Positions 1-12,765 of a stretch of 50,608 nt of DNA are shown piece by piece (position 1 is the first letter of the stretch; each line of letters starts with the position of its first letter). This stretch comes from a virus (Duplodnaviria > Heunggongvirae > Uroviricota > Caudoviricetes). Below the pieces are notes generated by a model. The model searched no databases. It was not told the origin of the DNA and saw nothing but the letters and a program-made list of their open reading frames with translations. A program made the translations under genes and the position numbers. The DNA lies in the IMG/VR virus record IMGVR_UViG_2667527522_000001; one strand, 5' to 3'.

Positions 1-861
1 ATGGTTGACAATGTTTTTAAGAAGAAATTGGCATCAATTAAGAACGAACATGTGTCGGTGTTAGATAGTTACAAAGTAAGATCATTTAAAGAGACTCATA
101 GCGACACGGCCTGTATTGTGCGTATTATTGAAATATATTCACTGAATAAGCTGCGAGCTAAAGGTGAAAAGCTGTATTCACTTACGGGGTTAACAGTACC
201 TGATACGGAAACTGTGGCGAATGAGATCAACCTGCTCCTGAGCCGTTATGCCCAGTTGTGTCGTCAGGAAGAGGAAGAGTTATCTTTCCGGCAGCGTGAA
301 GTGACAAATGCGGAAGTTGCATGGAAAAGCACATTCTCAAAAAACGGCGTCAGTAGCATTGCTGAAGCCAAAACGAATAAAATGGGGCATGCTGAACGAG
401 CGGATGCTGAACGGTATTACCATCTGGCTGTTTCCCGGTTGAATGAACAACATAGTCGATTGAGCACGATCAAGCTTTTGCCGGGAGTACTGGCCGATGA
501 AGGAAACTACATTGGGAAGGGAATCGATAAGCGTTTACTGAATATATTTCCTCAATCCGGCCAGATCCCTGCTGATTTTATTTCTGTATTTAATGACAGT
601 GACGTTGTCCGTGATATTAAATTTATTACTGATGCACTCAAGTCTTTATCTGATTCCGTGAGTGAAATTATTAGTCGTTGTAGCGTTCCAACTGATCGTT
701 ATGTATTAAATAACGGTGGAATGGCAAGAGCTATGGCTTACAGGGAGTACTATCGAGCAGATAATTATGTATTACGTTCAGTCGTAAGTGACCGGGATTA
801 TGTTGAGCATGTAATGAAATACAATCTGGTTACTGAGTACAAAAATAAAATCTTTTCTTAA
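1..861 (+). CDS. Hypothetical protein in scaffold position upstream of the capsid gene; may be 5'-truncated by the window edge
   Basis: 286-codon frame open from base 1; ends 22 bp before the GpN-like gene; no family recognisable by eye. Confidence 0.4.
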   Translation: MVDNVFKKKLASIKNEHVSVLDSYKVRSFKETHSDTACIVRIIEIYSLNKLRAKGEKLYSLTGLTVPDTETVANEINLLLSRYAQLCRQEEEELSFRQREVTNAEVAWKSTFSKNGVSSIAEAKTNKMGHAERADAERYYHLAVSRLNEQHSRLSTIKLLPGVLADEGNYIGKGIDKRLLNIFPQSGQIPADFISVFNDSDVVRDIKFITDALKSLSDSVSEIISRCSVPTDRYVLNNGGMARAMAYREYYRADNYVLRSVVSDRDYVEHVMKYNLVTEYKNKIFS

Positions 862-883
862 ATACTTAAAAAGGTGAAAAACT

Positions 884-1888
884 ATGTATGCCTTCAAAAC
901 TGAAAGGCCGGACGCAGCACGTCGTTATCATAATAAATTCGTCACTGGCACTAACTATCAGGAAGAATCAAACAGACGCTTTGCATTAAGCGAACCTACT
1001 GAAAATATACTGCGTACCTCAATTCTGGAATCCGGGTGGCTTATTAAAAATATTACCCTACGTGATGTTAACGCCGTGTCAGGTAATGCCGTCAATATTG
1101 GTGCCAGTGAACTGTATACCGGACGTGTGGATGGTGGCCGTTTCCACAAAAAAATGGCAATCAATGGTACGGAGTTCTTTCTGACAGAGACGGATACCTG
1201 CGCCCGGATCAGCTATTCCGATATGTCTCATATTTACCATACCGGCGTGCCGGATGAGTTTGAGAAAACGGTTGAGAGCTTTTTTGCCCAGGCATATGCG
1301 CTGGACATGCTGCGGGTCGGTTTCAACGGTGTGTCGATTGCAAATACTACAAACCCGGAAATCAATAAAAAAGGCGAGGATGTCAATATTGGCTGGCATG
1401 CACTGGCGAAAGCCTACGGGAACGGAAAGCAAATCATCTCTGAGCCTGTCACTCTGGGAGAGACTGGCACCTGGAAAAATATTGATGCTCTGGCCAACCA
1501 TCTGATTACAGAGCTTATTGCTGAGCAGTTTCGTGAAGATCCTCGTCTGGTTGTACTGGTTGGGGCAGAGCTGGCAGCACATCAACGCCTGAAGTTATTT
1601 AATGCCGCAGACCGCCCGTCTGATGTGAATGCGGCACAGATGGCTACAAGTTCTGTTGCTGGCCGCTTTGCGTTTATTCCCCCGTTTATGCCGGGTAAGC
1701 GTCTGGCAGTAACGACGCTGGATAATCTGCATATTTACACTCAGGCGATAACACGCTGGTTTCGTGCTGAGTTTGATGATGAAAGCAGTGAATACGTGCA
1801 TTCCTACCTGCGCAATGAAGGTTATGCACTCGGTGAACCTGAACTGTACGCGGCTGTTGATGAGTGCACCCTGACGTTTGCGGATTGA
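884..1888 (+). CDS. P2-family (GpN-like) major capsid protein
   Basis: 334 aa; motifs GFNGV, NIGW, EDPRLVVLVG, LDNLHIY line up with P2 gpN as I recall it; SD-like aaaggtg upstream. Confidence 0.6.
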   Translation: MYAFKTERPDAARRYHNKFVTGTNYQEESNRRFALSEPTENILRTSILESGWLIKNITLRDVNAVSGNAVNIGASELYTGRVDGGRFHKKMAINGTEFFLTETDTCARISYSDMSHIYHTGVPDEFEKTVESFFAQAYALDMLRVGFNGVSIANTTNPEINKKGEDVNIGWHALAKAYGNGKQIISEPVTLGETGTWKNIDALANHLITELIAEQFREDPRLVVLVGAELAAHQRLKLFNAADRPSDVNAAQMATSSVAGRFAFIPPFMPGKRLAVTTLDNLHIYTQAITRWFRAEFDDESSEYVHSYLRNEGYALGEPELYAAVDECTLTFAD

Positions 1889-1901
1889 CTTAGCGACAGA
1901 A

Positions 1902-1930
1902 AGACCCGCTCAGAGGCGGGTCTCGTTTAC
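1902..1930 (+). terminator. Rho-independent terminator-like hairpin after the capsid gene
   Basis: GACCCGC-loop-GCGGGTC stem directly after the stop codon; weak T tract. Confidence 0.4.
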
Positions 1931-2085
1931 AGCATCAGGAAAAATGAAGAACTATTTTTAAGCAGAGGCTTAAGCATGCCAGCGTTAATTAATCCAGGCA
2001 ATGATCAGTTTTCGGTTATAAATTTCTTGCCTCACCAGGAATGCGCGGGATATAGTTTAAAGGTTGCCGCAAAATCGGCAGCCGG

Positions 2086-2141
2086 GCGTAGGAACCCGTG
2101 TTATCTGAAGGCGATACTACACGCGCTAGGCGTGTTTTTTT
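2086..2141 (+). promoter_or_regulatory. seqA-like target box followed by hairpin and T7 run (candidate immunity terminator)
   Basis: GTAGGAAC...TCTGAAGG box at 2088-2111; CACGC-loop-GCGTG stem plus TTTTTTT at 2120-2141. Confidence 0.45.
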
Positions 2142-2261
2142 GTGTCGCAGCTTTGACTCACCTAAAATTTATGGTGTGGTGGCTGATTGTATTTTTTTAT
2201 TTTTTACGCCACATCATCAGAATTATGGTAGTCCAGGCGGGGCAGCTTTCGGGCTGGCCGG

Positions 2262-2289
2262 TATCCTTCAGAGCCGGTATTCCTACCCC
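2262..2289 (+). ncRNA. seqB-like element, candidate CI-RNA-type antisense core
   Basis: TATCCTTCAGAGCCGGTATTCCTAC is the same-strand reverse complement of both halves of the flanking boxes. Confidence 0.4.
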
Positions 2290-2310
2290 CGTCTGGGCTA
2301 CCACCCATGA

Positions 2311-2352
2311 GCGTAGGAACTCCGGTGGTAGCGTTACCCGCTATCTGAAGGA
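2311..2352 (+). promoter_or_regulatory. seqC-like target box overlapping the Shine-Dalgarno of the first alpha-operon ORF
   Basis: GTAGGAAC...TCTGAAGGAGG; AGGAGG sits 10 nt before the ATG at 2363. Confidence 0.45.
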
Positions 2353-2362
2353 GGTTGCCATT

Positions 2363-2566
2363 ATGGCTACAGTCCCTGCTTTATCTCACCCTGAATTTAC
2401 CTTTGTCTTTCTGGCTGTCCGCCGTACAGACCGTGATGCCCGTCCACGCCCTGTGCGTGTAATCGCAGAATGCGAGCATGCTGCACGCCTTAAACTTGCC
2501 ACTGAATTTATCCTGAGCTTTGCTGCCCGTATCCCTGTGAAAAGAGCCGGGGAGGTGGTTGCATGA
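2363..2566 (+). CDS. Small hypothetical protein, first ORF after the immunity region
   Basis: 67-codon ORF with strong SD; the longer 1976-2566 frame upstream is probably not coding. Confidence 0.4.
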   Translation: MATVPALSHPEFTFVFLAVRRTDRDARPRPVRVIAECEHAARLKLATEFILSFAARIPVKRAGEVVA

Positions 2567-2799
2567 AATCCATGAATTTTAAGCAAGGCTGCATATTGAG
2601 TGAACAGGGGGAGAGTCGTCTGTTACGGGCGGCACTGGCCAGTGAGTTTCTTGCAGAGGTCTTGTCCGTGCCCACAGTGAATGGAGCGAGAACTGTTTCA
2701 GCGGAAGGCGCTGCGGCTTTAGTGGCCTGTATTGCCGAACAACTGGATGGCGTTGTTAAGGAAACCAGCACAATTAAGGGAGTGATGCGCGATGAATAA
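2563..2799 (+). CDS. Small hypothetical protein
   Basis: 78 aa; ATGA overlap with upstream ORF, translationally coupled. Confidence 0.45.
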   Translation: MKSMNFKQGCILSEQGESRLLRAALASEFLAEVLSVPTVNGARTVSAEGAAALVACIAEQLDGVVKETSTIKGVMRDE

Positions 2800-3202
2800 T
2801 AATCAAAATTTAAAGGCGCATGCTTTACGAACAGCAGTCTTACGCTACTACATTGCTGATGCATTCATTTCCTTAATGGTGCGTGTTCATAATGAACCTG
2901 TTTATATTGAAGATGGCGAACGAATAGAACTCTCCCACGAAAAAGTGGTGAGTAATATTATTTACCATATTGAAATGCCGTGGGTGAATGAGTTTGGGGC
3001 TGATGCTGGTTGCATACTGGCCGCAGAGAAACTGGAAAAAATGCTTAAACCAGGCTTTATGTCAGAAAATATTCGCCTGTCAGTTTTTGGTGTCACAGAG
3101 ATGCGTGAGGTTTACCGGGATATTATTTTCGGAGCACCTGATGGCGAACTACCCGAAGGTTTTGAATTTGTGAAGCCGGAAGGTCAGGAGGTGCTGCTGT
3201 GA
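2792..3202 (+). CDS. Hypothetical protein
   Basis: 136 aa; stop overlaps the primase GTG start. Confidence 0.5.
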   Translation: MNNNQNLKAHALRTAVLRYYIADAFISLMVRVHNEPVYIEDGERIELSHEKVVSNIIYHIEMPWVNEFGADAGCILAAEKLEKMLKPGFMSENIRLSVFGVTEMREVYRDIIFGAPDGELPEGFEFVKPEGQEVLL

Positions 3203-5886
3203 AAACACCGTCTGTATCCACGATTTCCGGAGCTGCAATTGGGCGCTGGCCTTATATCCTGTCAGCATTAGGTATTAAAGTACCGTCCGCAGGACATCAT
3301 GGGGCTTGCCCTGCCTGTGGTGGAAAAGATCGTTTTCGACTGGACGATAAAGCGGGGCGAGGGACGTGGTTTTGTAATCAGTGCGGTCATGGCGATGGTC
3401 TTGATCTGGTTCGTCTGGTGACAGGAAGAAAGATAAAAGAAGTCGCCGGGATGGTATCTGAGGCGCTTGCATTACCAGAAATACAGGAGAAGCCCGCATT
3501 GCCAGCCAGGAAAAAGGCCGCAGGAAAAGAAGCGGGCGCGGAGCGATATACCAGACTCAGACAGCAGTCCTGCAATGGTGAGCCGGTCTATCTGACAAAT
3601 AAGAGCTTACACGGGTATTCACTTCCCTTGCTGTCACAGCCTTTGAATCTGGCCGGAATAACATTTTCCACCGGTTCATTACTGCTGCCTTTGACGGATA
3701 TTTCCGGGAATATTACTGGTGGCCAGCTTATCAATCCTGACGGGGATAAAAGTCTGCTGCCCGGTAGCCAGCTGTCTGGCGCATTCATTGCCCTGACCGA
3801 TATACCCGCTGAAACACCTGAACAGGTGATTATCACTGAGGGTTTTGCCACGGCGCTTACCGTCAGTCTGCTGACTGAAGGATGGATCGTGGCGGCTGTC
3901 GCTGCCACCAATTTACTGAAGGTGACGGAGCAGATCCGAAAACGCTGGCCGGAAACCCGGATCATTCTGGCCGGAGATAATGATCTGGCTGACGGCAAAG
4001 AAAACACCGGGCGTATTCAGGCAGAGAAAGCCGCCAAAGCGGTGGATGGCTGGGTAACGCTCCCTCCGGTACGCCATAAGGCTGACTGGGATGATTATCG
4101 GCAGGAAGTGGGGAAAGAACGGGCGAGAGATGCCTTTCGTGAAGAAATGACGCTGCATGGCAAAGGGCAGACCCGTTTACCAGAAGGGTTCCGGCTGACA
4201 AAAGAATATTTGTGGTACGACAAGCTGGTTAATAAGTCTGATGGTGATACAGAGATACGTAATATCAAAATTTGCAGTCCGTTGCGGGTGACGGCAATCA
4301 CCAGTGATGCTGATGGAAGTAATTACGGGCGTTTGCTGGAATGGGAAGATACCAACGGAAACAGCCGTAAATGGGCAATGCCGATGGAGATGCTGGGCGG
4401 TAGCGGGGAAGAACTGCGCCGCGTTCTGCTGGTTAACGGGCTTTCTTACATCAACATTAACGGCATGGCCAGAGCATTCCTGATGGAATATATCTCGCTG
4501 TGTAAACCGGACAGAAAAGTAACCTGTGTGAATAAAACTGGCTGGCACGGCGGGGTTTACGTTCTCCAGGATGAAGTGATAGGGCGCGAAGCCCAGTCAG
4601 TCATCTTACAAACATCGAGTGTGCAGGGGCGTGATTTTCGTGTCAGCGGCACATCAGAGGGCTGGCGTGAAAATATAGGCCGTTATTGCATAAAGAATGC
4701 CCGTCTTGCCTTTGCGGTGAGTCTGGCATTTGCTGCCCCCCTTCTGAAACTGGTTGGTATCGGCGGTGGAGGTTATCACCTCAAAGGGGAATCCACAGAC
4801 GGTAAAACCACGACGATGAAAGTGGCTGCATCAGTATGTGGTGGAACAGATTTCTGGCATACGTGGCGGGCGACGGGGAATGCCTTAGAAGGAACGGCGA
4901 GCCGCCGCAATGATGCCACGCTGATGCTGGATGAAATCCGGGAGGTTGACGGCAGGGAGGCGGGAAATATCGCTTATATGCTGGCTAACGGGCAGGGCAA
5001 AGCCAGAGCCAGAACAGATGGTTCGGTAAGGGAAACCAACCGCTGGAATCTGTTGTTTCTGTCTACCGGGGAACTGTCACTGGTAGAGCATGCGGCAAGC
5101 GCCGGGGAACGTACGTATGCCGGGGTTGAGGTCAGAATGATCCAGATCCCAAGCGATTCGGGCAAGTATGGCGTGTTTGAAGAACTTCATGGCTTCAGTA
5201 GCGGGAAAACCCTGGCTGAGCATCTTGAGCAGCACGTAGCGCATTATCATGGTGCACCATTCCGCGACTGGCTGTATTGCCTGACCGCTGATCTGCCGGA
5301 ACTGACCAGTCAGGCGAAAGCCTTATTGAAAGAGTATACCCGAAGGCTGACGCCGGAAAATGCCGGGAATCAGGTTGGCCGGGCTGTTACCCGTTTTGCT
5401 CTGGTTGCGATGGCCGGGGAGCTGGCCACAAAAGCGGGCATCACAGGATGGCCGGAGGGAGAGGCCTTTCGTGCCGCTCAAAGCTGTCTGGCTGCATGGA
5501 TGGCTGACCGGGGCCATACAGCTAATCAGGAAGATAAAGCGGCACTTGAACAGGTTCGGGACTTCATGACGCGTAATCAGTTCAGTCGGTTTGCTGACTG
5601 GAATGACGACAGGAACCGGCCTGTTTCAATGATGGGATTCAGAAAAGTCGATAAAGGAGACAACGTGACAGAGCCGGTTGTGACGTTCTACGTTCTCCCG
5701 TCAGGCTGGAAGGAGATCTGTAAGGGATTTGACTCGCGTAAGGTGGCCAGGTTGTGTGTGGACGCGGGCTGGCTGAAACCCGGTGAAGATGGCCGGACGC
5801 AAAACAGCATTCGCCTGCCAGAAATAGGGCTTAAACGTGTGTACCAGTTCAATACACAGGTACTGGGAAGCGCTGAACCTGAGTGA
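3199..5886 (+). CDS. P4 alpha-type primase/helicase
   Basis: 895 aa; N-terminal CPACGG...CNQCGHGDG zinc-binding motif; long central and C-terminal region; GTG start with AGGAGG SD. Confidence 0.88.
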   Translation: MKTPSVSTISGAAIGRWPYILSALGIKVPSAGHHGACPACGGKDRFRLDDKAGRGTWFCNQCGHGDGLDLVRLVTGRKIKEVAGMVSEALALPEIQEKPALPARKKAAGKEAGAERYTRLRQQSCNGEPVYLTNKSLHGYSLPLLSQPLNLAGITFSTGSLLLPLTDISGNITGGQLINPDGDKSLLPGSQLSGAFIALTDIPAETPEQVIITEGFATALTVSLLTEGWIVAAVAATNLLKVTEQIRKRWPETRIILAGDNDLADGKENTGRIQAEKAAKAVDGWVTLPPVRHKADWDDYRQEVGKERARDAFREEMTLHGKGQTRLPEGFRLTKEYLWYDKLVNKSDGDTEIRNIKICSPLRVTAITSDADGSNYGRLLEWEDTNGNSRKWAMPMEMLGGSGEELRRVLLVNGLSYININGMARAFLMEYISLCKPDRKVTCVNKTGWHGGVYVLQDEVIGREAQSVILQTSSVQGRDFRVSGTSEGWRENIGRYCIKNARLAFAVSLAFAAPLLKLVGIGGGGYHLKGESTDGKTTTMKVAASVCGGTDFWHTWRATGNALEGTASRRNDATLMLDEIREVDGREAGNIAYMLANGQGKARARTDGSVRETNRWNLLFLSTGELSLVEHAASAGERTYAGVEVRMIQIPSDSGKYGVFEELHGFSSGKTLAEHLEQHVAHYHGAPFRDWLYCLTADLPELTSQAKALLKEYTRRLTPENAGNQVGRAVTRFALVAMAGELATKAGITGWPEGEAFRAAQSCLAAWMADRGHTANQEDKAALEQVRDFMTRNQFSRFADWNDDRNRPVSMMGFRKVDKGDNVTEPVVTFYVLPSGWKEICKGFDSRKVARLCVDAGWLKPGEDGRTQNSIRLPEIGLKRVYQFNTQVLGSAEPE

Positions 5887-5912
5887 TTATCGCGTGAGTC
5901 TTATTTTTATGA

Positions 5913-6103
5913 GGTAACACTGGTAACAGAGGTAACACCCGTTACTGATGCGGTTCTTCAGTGTTACCAGTCAAAAATACTGACTGGTAACAGAGGTAAC
6001 AAAAAATGGTGTGTTACCACGCGTTACCTCTTGATTTTGCTAACTGGTAACAGATTAAATCCTTTTAAATCAATAGCGTTACACGTGTTACCAGTGTTAC
6101 ACG
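5913..6103. repeat. Iteron cluster, candidate replication origin or cis replication region
   Basis: At least 6 direct GGTAACA and 4 inverted TGTTACC copies in about 190 bp directly after the primase gene. Confidence 0.55.
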
Positions 6104-6168
6104 TTCAGAACAAGAGGTAGGGATCCAAATCCCTTCTTCTGGCGGGCAACAGTATAGGGCACAGAACG

Positions 6169-6441
6169 ATGAAGATGATGAGAATGTACTGCCCCACATG
6201 TCAGGCAGTAGCACGGATAGGTAAAACAAACAGGAAACACCCACAACTGTACGATGTGTACTGCTATTGCTCTAATGTGGAGTGCGGTCACTCGTTTGTG
6301 ATGAATGTTGCTTTCTCCCATTCCGTTAGTCCAAGCGCGCTGAACGGGCAGGGAAGGGTTAAAGAGCTGATTGATGCAATTCCACCCGAGGAACGGGAAA
6401 AGGCTTTAAAGTTGCTGCTGGCTGCGCAAAAGAATGGGTAA
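6169..6441 (+). CDS. Ogr/Delta-family zinc-finger late activator
   Basis: YCPTCQ...(22 aa)...CSNVEC cysteine spacing as in P2 Ogr. Confidence 0.65.
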   Translation: MKMMRMYCPTCQAVARIGKTNRKHPQLYDVYCYCSNVECGHSFVMNVAFSHSVSPSALNGQGRVKELIDAIPPEEREKALKLLLAAQKNG

Positions 6442-7120
6442 AGTATGCGTCGGGAATGGCCGATCTGTTCCCGGAACCTGAACACAGGATTTCAGTTTAT
6501 ACGGTCATAAAATTATTATTTTTCAACTGGTTATCTTCTTCATGTTTCACAAACCTTCATAAAATCACACACCTAAAATTAATTATCCATTTAATATCAT
6601 AGAGTTGCGTATTCAGGCCATAGATTCGACGGACAGTAAAACTGAAAAAAAATGAATTTCTTTTCATTCTTTTCAGTTCCTGTATCGCAGTACATCTCGA
6701 GGACTGGCACGGACTGGCGGTATCGTTTGTAAAAAATCCAGGCTGAAAATTTTTAGTGATATGAAAACCGCAGGCGGGTGCGGTGTAGTGCCGTTTTGGT
6801 CTGTCGAGCGTATATTTTCCTTTTTCACGATTGCTGCATATCAAAACGAATGTGCAGATATCAGGCCGTGTCAAACCGTGAATCGTGGAGCCTAAATGCC
6901 CAAACTACGTTTGTAGACCTAGCTAGGGGAAGGTTTCCACATATACTGCTACCTATCTTCCAGTCGCTGGTGAGGATCAAGGTAAGCTAACTGGTGAACA
7001 AGAAAAGTACTTTCGTATCTTGCGTACTCGTTTTTTTTGATTAGTATGTACAGGTAGTAACTGGATGGTGAGAATTCGTCATAACTTATCAAATTGCATG
7101 ATGTTTATAGAGTATGAGTA

Positions 7121-8002
7121 ATGAGTCATAATAAAAAGGAATATGCTAAATTTTTCCGTCGCCCCATTTTTTCATCCTTAGCAAAAGGTAAGGATATTTC
7201 GGATTTATTTGGGAGTTTTGATTCTTACTGCTATGAAACACTGTTTTCAAACAATGATAATAATGAACATGAGATTTCACTAAGGGATTTATTTACATCA
7301 TTATATGATTTTTTGCGTCTGAATTATAGAAATGAATATGTTTATAAGACAGCACTTGTCAATAAAATAATATTCGGTAAGCACAGCCCAAAAACAAGTT
7401 CGTCGTCCATAGAGTTACCAATTAAAAACTCTATAGTGGATGTTGCGGTGTTTAATGGTACGTCTACAGCTTACGAGATTAAGACAGAGTATGATTCACC
7501 AAAAAGGTTGATTACTCAAGCCCCTGATTATTTGGATGTTTTTGATAAAGTGTATATAGTTACACATCCAGAGTATGCAAGTAAATATTGTGCTTTAAAT
7601 CTCCCCAGAGTGGGAGTTATGGTTTTGAATAAAAAAGATCAATTGAGTGTCATTAAGGAGGCAGATTCAAATATTGATTATATTAAAAGTGACAGCTTGT
7701 TTTCAGTTCTTAGAAAGGAAGAGTTCTTAGCTATAATAGAAGATTACACTTCAACTAAAATAAATATGCCTAACGGATTGGTTTATGAATATTGTAAAGA
7801 GATATTCATGCAGATGCCATTAAACATAGCAAATAAATACTTTATCTCTGCTATGAAAAAAAGATGTAACGATAAAGTTTTTTTGGATTATATTTATTCT
7901 CTTCCAGCATGTTTACGTGTTTTAGGTTATGCAACACCATTATCAAGAAAGCAAAAAGAATTCATCATGAATTTGATGGATGTAAAAATTAAAATTTGTT
8001 GA
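7121..8002 (+). CDS. Hypothetical protein, gene A of an AT-rich accessory cassette; possible PD-(D/E)xK-like nuclease motif
   Basis: 293 aa; markedly AT-rich versus flanks; IVDVAVF...AYEIK resembles a D...ExK signature. Confidence 0.65.
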   Translation: MSHNKKEYAKFFRRPIFSSLAKGKDISDLFGSFDSYCYETLFSNNDNNEHEISLRDLFTSLYDFLRLNYRNEYVYKTALVNKIIFGKHSPKTSSSSIELPIKNSIVDVAVFNGTSTAYEIKTEYDSPKRLITQAPDYLDVFDKVYIVTHPEYASKYCALNLPRVGVMVLNKKDQLSVIKEADSNIDYIKSDSLFSVLRKEEFLAIIEDYTSTKINMPNGLVYEYCKEIFMQMPLNIANKYFISAMKKRCNDKVFLDYIYSLPACLRVLGYATPLSRKQKEFIMNLMDVKIKIC

Positions 8003-8466
8003 TATCCTCAGGAGTTGTAAGTTATGTATAGCCCATATTTGTATGCGAGAAGTACAGAGTTATTATGCCTTAGGGACCTCGTTGCGAAGGGAGTTAGCCT
8101 AAATGGTCTGCTACCAATTTTAGAACCAATTAACGTCAATACGAGAAATTTATTAACATGTTTAAATGTTTGGAATTCTGACATAATTGTTATCCTTAAT
8201 CCTTATCAGGAAGATTTTTCTTCACACAATAACGTCTTAACTTTAAATCAAAATTTATCAAGTGTATTAACAAATAAAAATAATATCATCTCTGGATATC
8301 TTATTCAGCCCAATACAACGATTAATGATATTAATAATTGGTTGAATGCTAACTTAAATAGACGAGTTGCACTTCTATATGATAATCCATCATTATCCAA
8401 CTCTGATATTCGGTAATGGTGCCAACTTACTGATTTAGTGTATGATGGTGTTTTTGAGGTGCTCCC

Positions 8467-8742
8467 GTGGCTTCCATCTCCATCAGTTGTCCCTCCTGCT
8501 CAGCTACTGAAGGCGTGGTGCGTAACGGTAAAAGTACTGCCGGACATCAGCGCTATCTCTGCTCTCACTGCCGTAAAACATGGCAACTGCAGTTCACTTA
8601 CACCGCTTCTCAACCCGGTACACACCAGAAAATCATTGATATGGCCATGAATGGTGTTGGATGCCGGGCAACCGCCCGCATTATGGGCGTTGGCCTCAAC
8701 ACGATTTTACGTCACTTAAAAAACTCAGGCCGCAGTCGGTAA
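8467..8742 (+). CDS. insA: IS1 InsA
   Basis: [42 protein letters not shown] matches IS1 InsA. Confidence 0.9.
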
Positions 8743-9164
8743 CCTCGCGCATACAGCCGGGCAGTGATGTGATTGTCTGCGCTGAAATGGACGAACAGTG
8801 GGGCTACGTCGGTGCTAAATCACGTCAGCGCTGGCTGTTTTACGCGTATGACAGGATACGGAGGACGGTTGTGGCGCACGTCTTCGGTGAACGCACTCTG
8901 GCCACACTGGAGCGTCTTCTGAGCCTGCTGTCGGCCTTTGAGGTCGTGGTATGGATGACGGATGGCTGGCCGCTGTATGAATCCCGCCTGAAGGGAAAGC
9001 TGCACGTAATCAGCAAGCGTTACACTCAGCGCATTGAGCGACATAACCTGAATCTGAGACAACATCTGGCAAGGCTGGGACGGAAGTCACTGTCGTTCTC
9101 AAAATCGGTGGAGCTGCATGACAAAGTCATCGGGCATTATCTGAACATAAAACACTATCAGTAA
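8661..9164 (+). CDS. insB: IS1 InsB frame (transposase InsAB' by -1 frameshift)
   Basis: IS1 InsB sequence; slippery AAAAAAC at about 8718. Confidence 0.85.
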
Positions 9165-9729
9165 GTTGGAGTCATTACCTGATATTCAGTTGTTGGCGAC
9201 AAATCAATTGATTAGTTATCATGTTGTTTTAAATAATAAAATGCTTCCTAATCAGTGCGCTCTTCTTCCTTTGTCGAAGTTAATTATTATTAGCGATAAC
9301 TTTAGAAAGTTAGCAAAAAATGCTGATTATAATGGGCCGGAACTTTTCACGCACGCACATCAATTCGTGGGACAAAATTACTTAGGATTTGGCGATTATA
9401 CAATTACTGGCCAGGTACTAGATCTTGGAGGTGGTCAACCTTCTGCTGTTGCCGCACATTTGGTGTTCAAGAATTTACAAGCGAATACAGTTTGGATTCG
9501 TCATTTTGTATCAAGCAACACGCAACGAGGAAGTTCAAATGTTACTGCAAAATTTTTAGATGTTTCAGATCAAATTACAAATCTTGTTCCCCAACATCCA
9601 ACCCAGTTTGGCAGCAACATTGGTCTTAACTATTATTATTACAATAGTCAACCAACTGTAAGGCATTTCCCTGGGTTGCCAAAAAACAAACAGTATCAAA
9701 TTACTCACCATATTTGTTTCATGCTGGAT

Positions 9730-10953
9730 TTAATAGCAGGTCGTATTTAATAAGCTAGCGTACCATTCCATCATTACTTGTCGATCTTTAATATATTGCG
9801 CATGATTGTAAGTACCTCGAATAGAGTTCTTATCAACATGCGCAAGCTGCATTTCAATCCAGGCACTTTCAAACCCATGCTCATGCAAGATGGTGCTCAT
9901 GGTATGCCTGAAACCGTGACCCGTTAACCGACCGTGATAACCCAGTAGTTTTATCACTTTGTTGATGCTGGCTTCGCTCATTGGTTTACTGACGTCATTC
10001 CGGCCAGGGAAAACGAGGCTGTAATTCCCTGTTATTTCTTGCAGCTTTTTCAGGATATTGATCGCCTGAGTTGATAACGGAACCAGATGGGGGCGGCGTT
10101 TCTTCATCCGTTCTTTGGGGATCTCCCATAAGGCATTATCTAAATCAAACTCAGCCCATTCCGCTGCACGTAGTTCAATTGTTCGCACGCCTGTTAGCAT
10201 CAACAGCTGCGTGGCGTATTTGGTAACTAAACTGCCCTGATAGTTATCCAGAGCATTAACGAACTCGGGCAACTCGCTTTCAGTCAGGAACGGGAAGTGT
10301 TGGGTTTTAGGTTTGTTGAGTGCGATAGCTAAATCGGGTGCAAAATTATACTTTGCTCTACCAGTGGCAACAGCATAACGAAGCACTTCACCACAGCGGC
10401 GGCGGATCTTACTGGTTTGCTCTAGCGCACCTCTTTTCTCTATTTTTTGCAGGACGGTTAGCAGTTCTAATGGTTCAATCTGCTCAATTGGGCGCTGGCC
10501 GATAAAAGGAAAAATATCCTTTTCCATACAATTGAGAACCTCTTTTGCATAACCCTCTGACCAGGTGGCTTTTTTCGATGAGTGCCATTCTCTGGCCACA
10601 GACTCAAAGCTGTTCTCATGCGCGAACTGCAAAGCAATCTTATCTGCTTTTCTGGCTTCACTTGGGTTTATCCCGTTGGCTAACATCGAACGCGCTTCAT
10701 CACGTTTGGTACGTGCCTGTGCCAACGACACATCGCCATATACGCCAAAGGAAATCATCTTAGGCTTACCTGCAAAGCGATAGCGAAAACGCCAGCCTTT
10801 ACTGCCCGCTGTGTCGATCAGGAGTGATAGCCCCATACCATCGTTAAGCGTATAGGGTTTGTCCTTCGGTTTTGCTCTTTTTATTTGGATGTCAGATAGC
10901 AGCATGTGTATAGAAAAAAGATCGAACTCAGTTATACACAATGTTATACGCAA
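9730..10953 (-). CDS. int: Tyrosine integrase, P4 type
   Basis: 407 aa; N-terminal KRAKPKDKPYTLNDGMGLSLLI arm-binding type; C-terminal GHGFRHT...LAHVD...RGTYNHAQY catalytic region. Confidence 0.9.
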   Translation of the reverse strand: MRITLCITEFDLFSIHMLLSDIQIKRAKPKDKPYTLNDGMGLSLLIDTAGSKGWRFRYRFAGKPKMISFGVYGDVSLAQARTKRDEARSMLANGINPSEARKADKIALQFAHENSFESVAREWHSSKKATWSEGYAKEVLNCMEKDIFPFIGQRPIEQIEPLELLTVLQKIEKRGALEQTSKIRRRCGEVLRYAVATGRAKYNFAPDLAIALNKPKTQHFPFLTESELPEFVNALDNYQGSLVTKYATQLLMLTGVRTIELRAAEWAEFDLDNALWEIPKERMKKRRPHLVPLSTQAINILKKLQEITGNYSLVFPGRNDVSKPMSEASINKVIKLLGYHGRLTGHGFRHTMSTILHEHGFESAWIEMQLAHVDKNSIRGTYNHAQYIKDRQVMMEWYASLLNTTCY

Positions 10954-11075
10954 AGATGTATAGATTCCATTAGAAATAATGGTACTTTGCTGGACGAGTA
11001 TAAGGAGATGATATCAGTTAAAACAGTGAGTTATGGAATTAATTGAACTTAGTGAGAAGTGTTCATGGTGTCCCC

Positions 11076-11090
11076 TGCAGACATCTACTT
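11076..11090 (-). other. 15-nt match to the 3' terminus of tRNA-Arg (argW-like); att core candidate
   Basis: Minus strand reads CTGCAGGGGACACCA, preceded by non-tRNA sequence. Confidence 0.5.
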
Positions 11091-11153
11091 GAAGCGGCAG
11101 GGGATTGATTAGAATGGTATTTTTTAGATGTGAGAAATATTTTACCCGCTATT

Positions 11154-11354
11154 TTACCCATTGGCGCGGCTTAAGAGCTTATTTTTGAATTCACAATGGT
11201 CACGATATAACCATCTTGCTCGCCCGTGGATAACTTTGGCTTTTGGCAGGTCGCCGGACTTAATCCGGTCATAGATGAAGGTTTTACCGAAGCCAGTATC
11301 GGCCATGATGAATTTCAAATCAACCAGTGAATCAGGCTGTAGTTCGTGTTGCAT
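11154..11354 (-). CDS. alpA: AlpA-family DNA-binding protein (excisionase or regulator)
   Basis: 66 aa; LKFIMADTGFGKTFIYDRIKSGDLPKAKVIHGRARW resembles AlpA/Vis. Confidence 0.8.
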   Translation of the reverse strand: MQHELQPDSLVDLKFIMADTGFGKTFIYDRIKSGDLPKAKVIHGRARWLYRDHCEFKNKLLSRANG

Positions 11355-11364
11355 GAGTGCTATC

Positions 11365-11380
11365 TCCGAATAGGGAATCG
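11365..11380 (-). other. 16-nt match to the T-arm region of tRNA-Arg (argW-like); att core candidate
   Basis: Minus strand reads TTGCAGGTTCGATTCC, 19 nt upstream of the alpA start. Confidence 0.5.
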
Positions 11381-11390
11381 AACCTGCAAA

Positions 11391-11410
11391 TCAGGTAATA
11401 AAAAACCGCC
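11391..11410 (-). terminator. Rho-independent terminator ending the prophage leftward early operon
   Basis: Minus strand CCGCC-TGAT-GGCGG followed by TTTTTT. Confidence 0.5.
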
Positions 11411-11667
11411 ATCAGGCGGCTTGGTGTTCTTTCAGTTCTTCAATTCGAATATTGGTTATGTCTGCATGCGCTATCTGCGCCCATAGCATCCAGTGGTCAT
11501 AGCAGTCATTGATGTTCTCTGCTTCGATAACTCTGTTGAATGGCTCTCCATTCCATTCACCTGTGACTCGAAAGTGCATTTATCATCTCCATAAAACAAA
11601 ACCCGCCGTAGCGAGTTCAGATAAAAGAAATCCCCGCGAGTGCGAGGATAGTTACTTGTTCATATTA

Positions 11668-11967
11668 TTAATCGTCAATGTATTTTGAGCATTGTGGGCA
11701 ATCATCAATCCCACAATACGATTCATATGCATCCTTTATTGCGTCGCGGGCTTCAGTAAGAGTATTGAATAAGTTGCAGCTATTATCTTTTTGATATAGG
11801 TAAGTTCCTAATTTATAAGCAGAAGAAGCATCATTTCCGCTGTCTAAAATTACATCGTTATGGATTCTGCACCTTGCAAGAACTCCTGATCCCATAAGGG
11901 TCTGCATAGCCCATTGCTCTTGATCTTCACACAAATCATGAATGCTCATTTCAACACCTCTCTTCAC
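11668..11967 (-). CDS. Hypothetical early-left protein
   Basis: 99-codon ORF. Confidence 0.45.
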   Translation of the reverse strand: MKRGVEMSIHDLCEDQEQWAMQTLMGSGVLARCRIHNDVILDSGNDASSAYKLGTYLYQKDNSCNLFNTLTEARDAIKDAYESYCGIDDCPQCSKYIDD

Positions 11968-12063: not shown

Positions 12064-12765
12064 TTATAGCTCCTTTAATCGAGGCGGTTCTGGTAGAGGC
12101 ATCCAGTGGGTTACCTCTTTGAGATACAGGTCTTCGCCATCACCGTCATCCCAAGTTGGATTGCCATCATTAAACCAGTCGACATATACGCCGACCTGAG
12201 TGTTGGGGATGTTTGGTGGGTAGTTGTTTTTAAAGTCAGCTGCTAACACATAGCATTGTCGCTCTCCCATTTCTGGCATTCGCTCACTACAGCTTATCCA
12301 ACCATCCGGAGTTACCGGATAGTTGCCGGGTTCTTTAATGTGCAAGCGAGGCTCACCATCTTTTGGCTCAGGCCACTGGCGCTCCATGTTGATCTTCAAT
12401 TTATCTTCCATAGCAGCGGTAATTTCAGCATCGCTGATGCCAGCACGGCGCTGTGCATCCCACAACAGAAACTGCATATCAGCCCACTCGCTAAGATCGT
12501 CTGGTTCGGCTGCGGCTTCAAGTGCCTCTTTTGAGAGATGTTTCAGCGGACCAATGGGGCCAACGCAGCCAAATGTGGAGTCAGACCATTTGGCATGCTC
12601 GTGGCGAATCTGTTCGCGTTCCAGTGATGCCAGTGCAATTCGTGCCAGTTCCATTTGTTCGCCACGAGTAAGTCCGTTATCAAGCGGATTTTTAATGAAT
12701 AATTTGATACGTTCTTTGGTTATAGCGCTCATATCACTCTCCTTTGATGCGAATGCCTGTTGCAA
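12064..12765 (-). CDS. Hypothetical early protein with DGNPTW...W C-terminal motif
   Basis: 233-codon ORF; probable start at MSAITKERIK. Confidence 0.55.
   Translation of the reverse strand: MQQAFASKESDMSAITKERIKLFIKNPLDNGLTRGEQMELARIALASLEREQIRHEHAKWSDSTFGCVGPIGPLKHLSKEALEAAAEPDDLSEWADMQFLLWDAQRRAGISDAEITAAMEDKLKINMERQWPEPKDGEPRLHIKEPGNYPVTPDGWISCSERMPEMGERQCYVLAADFKNNYPPNIPNTQVGVYVDWFNDGNPTWDDGDGEDLYLKEVTHWMPLPEPPRLKEL

Follow-up and report, generated by a model that had tools for sequence, protein, structure and literature searches.

We find that a complete IS1 element splits the second gene of a two-gene cassette in a P4-like satellite of E. coli and that the insertion, as judged from close relatives, is very recent and limited to a small clone. 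We consider it most probable, at roughly 0.7, that IS1 entered the cassette in a target-biased event of neutral or nearly neutral effect, because IS1 favours AT-rich DNA. The interrupted gene (gene B, sce7725 family) lies downstream of an intact partner (gene A, sce7726 family). Together, the two appear to form a relative of the P4 gop-beta-cII abortive-infection locus that is without gop and for which a role in phage defence is predicted. The sequence analyzed, hereafter called the window, is IMG/VR record IMGVR_UViG_2667527522_000001, with a length of 50,608 nt. Its relevant features are listed by position and strand.

6169..6441, + strand, Ogr/Delta-like zinc-finger gene, left edge of the hotspot
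7121..8002, + strand, gene A, intact, 293 aa, sce7726 family/Phage_P4_cII, predicted PD-(D/E)xK nuclease fold
8024..8411, + strand, gene B (sce7725 family), 5' part: codons 1-129 and the first base of codon 130
8404..8411, no strand, target-site duplication, left copy, 8 bp, TGATATTC, which fits the IS1 motif NRAWWWWN (PMC10359306)
8412..9179, + strand, complete IS1, 768 bp, identical at 768/768 positions to IS1 in AVS0155 and FXCREC145 and on many chromosomes and plasmids
8412..8434, + strand, IS1 left inverted repeat, pairs with the right end
8467..8742, + strand, insA, 91 aa, zinc ribbon and HTH (PF03811 and PF12759)
8467..9164, + strand, InsAB' transposase, 232 aa after a -1 frameshift, with the DDE domain in the insB' frame
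8718..8724, + strand, A6C (AAAAAAC) programmed -1 frameshift site (role according to PMC12428005)
9157..9179, + strand, IS1 right inverted repeat, pairs with the left end
9180..9187, no strand, target-site duplication, right copy, TGATATTC
9188..9750, + strand, gene B, 3' part: remainder of codon 130 to the stop
9730..10905, - strand, satellite (P4-like) tyrosine integrase, which converges on gene B with a 21-nt overlap

A complete IS1 element with an 8-bp target-site duplication

The ends of the element read GGTAATGGTGCCAACTTACTGAT and the reverse complement of GGTAATGACTCCAACTTACTGAT, and 20 of the 23 terminal bases match. Directly abutting IS1 at either end is TGATATTC, and an exact 8-mer would recur at two fixed positions by chance with a probability of 4^-8, or about 1.5e-5. 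A 9-bp duplication reading CTGATATTC is obtained only if the last C of IS1 is counted as target. The transposase frames of the element are intact. InsA matches the Pfam families Zn_ribbon_InsA and HTH_Tnp_IS1, the insB' frame matches DDE_Tnp_IS1 (PF03400) with an E value of 1e-74, and a -1 shift at the AAAAAAC site (8718) yields the 232-aa InsAB' fusion in translation. The model NF033558 matches the two transposase halves separately, at 91.2 and 147.7 bits (cutoff 100). Judged by its sequence, the element is complete and apparently competent for transposition. A copy of at least 99% identity is present in 747 records, and the best copy in most other records has 90-99% identity; no second IS1 copy was found in the 50,608-nt window. 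The insertion of IS1 in itself is textbook biology and an ordinary event.

IS1 splits a single gene and leaves a null allele

When positions 8024-8411 are joined to 9188-9750, the result is a reading frame of 951 nt, a multiple of three, which has no internal stop and encodes 316 aa. The restored protein scores 242.2 bits against NF033831 (NCBIfam sce7725; cutoff 60) in a single stretch that covers model positions 1-311 of 312, and it is 100% identical to P0001 (316 aa), the representative of a 524-sequence E. coli cluster. Of 48 full-length homologues that we aligned, drawn from Enterobacterales, Pseudomonas, the Burkholderia group and Acidobacteria, 47 have 306-321 aa and one has 359 aa. The SK1144 annotation has the locus as a single CDS of 951 nt (WP_000287253.1) directly after the sce7726-family gene. 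Structure prediction renders the restored protein as a single-domain TIM barrel, which IS1 cuts in the middle.

The frames at 8024-8411 and 9188-9750 are, by these comparisons, halves of one gene, because the site is uninterrupted in 420 complete genomes, the family model is matched from end to end and the homologues are uniform in length. That they are instead two independent genes with IS1 lying between them has a negligible probability. We found no evidence for two such genes flanking IS1, and this reading is opposed by the one continuous 951-nt CDS in the 420 genomes, by the single stretch in which the family model is matched, and by homologues that are uniformly about 315 aa and modeled as a single TIM-barrel domain. 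Gene B is accordingly presented here as one gene, with a single TIM-barrel protein as its predicted product.

These data bear on the first-pass annotation of this DNA, which had described a 768-bp IS1 with intact terminal inverted repeats, flanked by a target duplication, whose removal restores a continuous gene B. The element proved exact at 8412-9179, with 20 of 23 matching end bases and intact transposase frames, and the duplication was recovered as TGATATTC at 8404-8411 and 9180-9187. The 951-nt frame appears once the IS and one repeat are taken out. The annotation had also proposed a comparison with strains that carry the uninterrupted locus, and this comparison gave one gene in the 420 complete genomes and in all homologues.

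In its interrupted form, gene B encodes 129 native residues and an Arg before a TAA stop, and the product ends in ...SNSDIR*. Both the Arg and the stop come from the IS1 end. We conclude that this is a null allele, because a single-domain TIM barrel is deprived of its second half in the 130-aa stub. At 9166-9750, an ORF with a TTG start joins seven codons from the IS to the 3' half of gene B.

Several other apparent variants of gene B were considered. The "frameshift alleles" P0003, P0004, P0010 and P0036 were rejected as evidence of decay, as they are probable homopolymer sequencing errors. Three P0003 loci were examined (GCA_949813075.1 and two Logan runs), each with 2-4 single-base gaps in 1,854 nt that break gene A as well as gene B; these gaps are probably homopolymer errors of long-read assemblies and not real pseudogenes. 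Four further contigs (three from Logan and one NCBI TPA record) all start at window-equivalent position 9215, inside gene B. They encode the 177-aa protein P0027 (121 member sequences); the index has this protein from many further samples, whose contigs are mostly 10-20 kb long. No IS bases were found at the ends of the four contigs. No complete genome has a junction at window-equivalent 9215, and the P0027 partial proteins were not taken as a sign of further IS insertion. Their common start may reflect either a loss of coverage in AT-rich DNA or a repeat that escaped recognition.

The cassette occupies the defence hotspot of a P4-like satellite

Along the satellite lie, in this order, a P2-family capsid homologue, an Ash protein, isrK and C4 RNAs and a Zn-ribbon/Toprim/DUF927 primase; farther along come the Ogr/Delta regulator, the A-B cassette, the integrase and a tRNA-Arg att site. 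The att core is common to the window satellite and SK1144. By its gene content, namely the integrase, an alpha-type primase, Ogr/Delta, C4 RNA and tRNA integration, we classify the element as a P4-like satellite. The cassette takes up the spot next to the integrase where P4 carries gop-beta-cII, and this P4 hotspot has been shown to hold anti-phage systems (PMC9122126).

Other parts of the window were also annotated. The P2-family major capsid homologue lies at 884-1888 (PF05125, E 1e-66). The isrK Hfq-binding RNA and the C4 antisense RNA, at 2063-2140 and 2221-2308 (Rfam, 69 and 81 bits), are inside or beside the Ash-family ORF, which fits a P4-type immunity region. Between the Ogr/Delta gene and gene A are 680 nt (6442-7120) that carry no annotated gene in related genomes, contain terminator-like hairpins at 6767-6794 and gave no match to P4. 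The P4 cos 19-mer was not found in the window. A second prophage (11081-50608) immediately follows the satellite integrase, and the two elements share one tRNA-Arg att site in tandem. This prophage carries an AlpA-like gene (11154-11354) and a gene for a dATP/dGTP pyrophosphohydrolase with DUF551 (12064-12765), and the annotation of matching genomes places ERF- and LexA-family genes in this region. Divergence from SK1144 sets in within the tRNA 3' end, after ...TGGTGTCCCCTGCAG, and no tRNA gene is present in the window. Ecol_276 (CP018953) and strain 875 (CP183996) have this tandem arrangement too, at 99.9% identity.

Gene A is related to P4 cII and gene B probably to beta

Gene A is identical to its counterpart in intact loci. 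It scores far above the curated cutoff of NF033832 (sce7726), as gene B does for NF033831. Its sole PADLOC match is "cll" (E 1e-18), BLASTP against P4 cII gave an E value of 9e-11, and PF26915 (Phage_P4_cII) is found in all the gene A homologues listed. RefSeq names P4 cII itself a "sce7726 family" protein and P4 beta a "beta family" protein. Residues D107, E119, K121 and Q133 are invariant among the homologues, and the D...ExK core is conserved. We therefore assign gene A to the PD-(D/E)xK type on the basis of the cII/sce7726 family matches and these invariant residues, as a predicted property.

The relationship of gene B is more distant. Gene B matched no Pfam or PADLOC model, that of beta (PF14350) included, and its BLASTP alignment to P4 beta was not significant. 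Profile-profile alignment of sce7725 with P4 beta (hhalign) gave a probability of 91%, with an E value of 1e-6 over 250 columns. PF14350 (Beta_protein) is the sole recurring family among sce7725 members, 15 of 49 of which match it weakly. On the one profile-profile match at 91% probability, gene B is a putative remote homologue of P4 beta. Sequence-profile searches of the PDB with genes A and B returned nothing significant, the best matches being a chaperonin and Lon (E > 0.05). A Foldseek search of the PDB with the gene B model gave no match at E <= 0.001, and only generic TIM barrels, including UVDE and Endo IV; for this reason no specific enzymatic activity can be assigned to gene B. With P4 Gop as a tblastn query, neither the window nor any of the three further sce7725 loci examined gave a match.

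Pairs of A and B genes occur in distant bacteria. In Providencia the pair has the same Ogr-A-B-int arrangement as the window, in Paraburkholderia it is co-directional and adjoins Hachiman and a type I R-M system, and in an acidobacterium the two genes are convergent. None of the publications found to name the sce7726/sce7725 family deals with function, and the family carries a name only. The pair is absent from the supplements of PMC9122126, which were searched by accession numbers, family names and gene-start sequences.

We somewhat favour the view that the intact pair is a gop-less anti-phage module with A as a nuclease-like effector and B as an enzyme-like partner. A protein A with a PD-(D/E)xK nuclease fold would then act together with the TIM-barrel, enzyme-like protein B against phages. 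With 420 carriers among 5,426 complete E. coli genomes and relatives across phyla, the cassette is common, and through its link to the P4 beta/cII module it is a reasonable candidate anti-phage system.

A recent insertion, seen only in a small clone

We searched 5,426 complete E. coli genomes with a 120-bp probe across the insertion site. The unoccupied site is present in 420 of them, where it is 99-100% identical, single-copy and chromosomal, and the occupied IS1 junction is present in 0 of 5,426. Junction matches of 80% coverage prove to be alignments that read through unoccupied sites or, in AVS0155, two distinct segments taken together as one. In Logan, only two short-read contigs were retrieved by exact look-up of the 130-aa gene B stub. 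One, from SRR3982153, crosses the left junction and ends 28 nt into IS1, and the second is similar.

Apart from IS1, AVS0155 and FXCREC145 agree with window positions 1-11085 at 100% identity, and SK1144 departs from these positions by one SNP; the satellite of about 10.3 kb is thus otherwise unchanged relative to these strains. Ecol_276 and strain 875, the two genomes in which the tandem prophage recurs, both bear the cassette. Gene B is uninterrupted in Ecol_276, where it was seen directly, and strain 875 falls under the general result that all matches to the site probe hold an uninterrupted site, without an entry of its own. The window IS1 is identical at 768 of 768 positions to chromosome or plasmid copies in cassette-bearing strains, among them AR_0086, 4/4, AR_451 and E41-1, and a donor IS1 is therefore at hand. 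In the mechanism that we propose, a resident IS1 would have moved into gene B at codon 130, with duplication of an 8-bp target. Its source would be one of the identical copies that the same E. coli lineages carry on their chromosomes and F-type plasmids. Gene A and the remaining satellite are unchanged.

Two further IS1 insertions at the cassette

The identical 768-bp IS1 is inserted independently at the cassette in two other strains. In FXCREC145 it is inverted (9924-10691 of the corresponding locus) and lies near codon 265 of gene A, with the target-site duplication TACGTGTTT at window-equivalent 7914-7922. This insertion costs gene A its C-terminal 28 residues, with the conserved LRVLGYATPLS motif among them, and leaves gene B intact. 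In AVS0155, IS1 occupies 10986-11753 of the corresponding locus, with the target-site duplication AGCTAGCG at window-equivalent 9753-9760. It begins 3 nt past the gene B stop, inside the 3' end of the integrase, and both cassette genes are whole. Neither the FXCREC145 nor the AVS0155 allele is accompanied by the tandem prophage. Together with the window, there are three independent insertions of an identical IS1 in or within 10 bp of the 1.85-kb cassette, which could exceed the neutral expectation; since the cassette itself was the query that revealed the AVS0155 and FXCREC145 insertions, their discovery carries an ascertainment bias. Among the matches listed, IS1 is in or next to the cassette in 2 of 420 carriers, in one of which it spares both genes.

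Sequenced isolates thus include one with a null gene B and an intact gene A (the window) and one with a C-terminally truncated gene A and an intact gene B (FXCREC145). Because both reciprocal single-gene losses occur, these isolates suggest that at native expression neither A nor B serves the other as an obligate antitoxin. These natural knock-outs are also ready-made strains for tests of function.

Target bias and the alternatives

IS1 prefers AT-rich targets of 8-9 bp, and 8-bp duplications make up about one-fifth of its events (PMC10359306). The duplicated TGATATTC fits the published 8-bp motif NRAWWWWN exactly (motif from PMC10359306), and the density of this motif is 75 per kb in the cassette versus 24 per kb in the rest of the window, a threefold difference. 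At 32.4% GC, the cassette is the most AT-rich 1.85 kb of the window and falls within the lowest 0.4% of sliding windows. A role of H-NS in IS1 transposition, which appears among the references of PMC12428005, would work in the same direction as the AT bias.

We consider it unlikely that the insertion was instead favoured by selection, as would be the case if the intact cassette were costly or autoimmune in this host and a null of gene B were beneficial. Such selection could explain why three independent IS1 insertions cluster at the cassette. It would also be in keeping with the related P4 gop-beta-cII locus, a cell-death/abortive-infection system triggered by a phage gene (PMC9122126; 10.1101/2023.04.06.535777), and with the documented use of IS insertion as an escape from costly immunity, for example self-targeting CRISPR-Cas (PMC10359306). 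However, the AT-rich target bias alone predicts clustering at this site, and the AVS0155 insertion spares both genes. The complete genomes that bear the cassette keep it at 99% identity or more and nearly all intact, with the low frequency of nearby IS1 among the matches listed (2 of 420), and none of the 420 has the window insertion, whose allele was seen only in a tiny clone. Selected loss is also opposed by Ecol_276, which has the same tandem prophage and an intact gene B, and by the other two IS1 alleles, which occur without it. Moreover, defence pseudogenes are reported to be rare in P4 hotspots (PMC13586616). The broader proposal that sce7726/sce7725 is a gop-less branch of gop-beta-cII in which the TIM barrel controls or signals to the nuclease, and that the IS1 hits reflect selection against an autoimmune cost, is in our estimation still more doubtful.

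Loss of B with retention of A could also have altered the activity of the cassette, for example through an unregulated A nuclease or an IS1-driven transcript that was then selected. Gene A and its upstream region are untouched, and the TTG ORF would supply a fusion to the gene B 3' half; yet half a TIM barrel is unlikely to fold according to the model, the co-occurrence of A and B across phyla implies joint action, and FXCREC145 shows the reciprocal loss. We regard this as very improbable. Misplacement of IS1 in gene B by the assembler is more improbable again. IS1 is multicopy and a classic source of misassembly, and no complete genome has the window's junction, but the element is flanked by a perfect 8-bp duplication that matches the IS1 consensus, the SRR3982153 contig crosses the left junction independently, and there is a second, similar contig.

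A target-biased, near-neutral insertion therefore remains our preferred reading. In interpreting this locus, the first-pass annotation had called the insertion recent and simple and had regarded it as what would be expected if the intact system were costly or toxic to the host. Its view of a complete IS1 that recently split a single gene stands, as the satellite is otherwise identical to its relatives and the IS1 is 768/768 identical to other copies in the same lineages. The expectation of cost or toxicity is unsupported, given the AT-rich target bias, the motif fit and carriers that are nearly all intact.

Comparison with known systems

The element itself conforms to the IS1 family of Enterobacteriaceae, with the same 768 bp, inverted repeats of about 23 bp, insA and insB' joined by an A6C shift, a 232-aa DDE transposase and the same 8-bp target duplication in AT-rich DNA (PMC12428005; PMC10359306). 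The window copy differs in nothing essential and is one sequence variant among many. The closest precedent for the lesion is the insertion of IS1 and IS10 into cas genes (PMC10359306), which involves the same element, type of lesion and 8-9 bp AT-rich preference. Those insertions were selected by lethal self-targeting, whereas no such selection is shown for the window.

As a sce7726 (NF033832)/sce7725 (NF033831) pair, the cassette has its genes adjacent, as in other genomes, and differs in that the window sce7725 gene is interrupted by IS1. Its counterpart in P4 is gop-beta-cII (DefenseFinder Rst_gop_beta_cll), which protects against lambda and P1 (PMC9122126) and causes programmed cell death on expression of phage orf184 (preprint 10.1101/2023.04.06.535777). 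Both loci hold the same hotspot position beside a P4-type integrase. Gene A corresponds to cII by BLASTP (E 9e-11), PF26915 and the PADLOC "cll" match, and gene B would be a remote homologue of beta (hhalign 91%) that falls below the Pfam and PADLOC beta models. In contrast to P4, the window cassette is without gop, and its A and B genes are co-directional and 21 nt apart, whereas P4 cII is convergent with beta.
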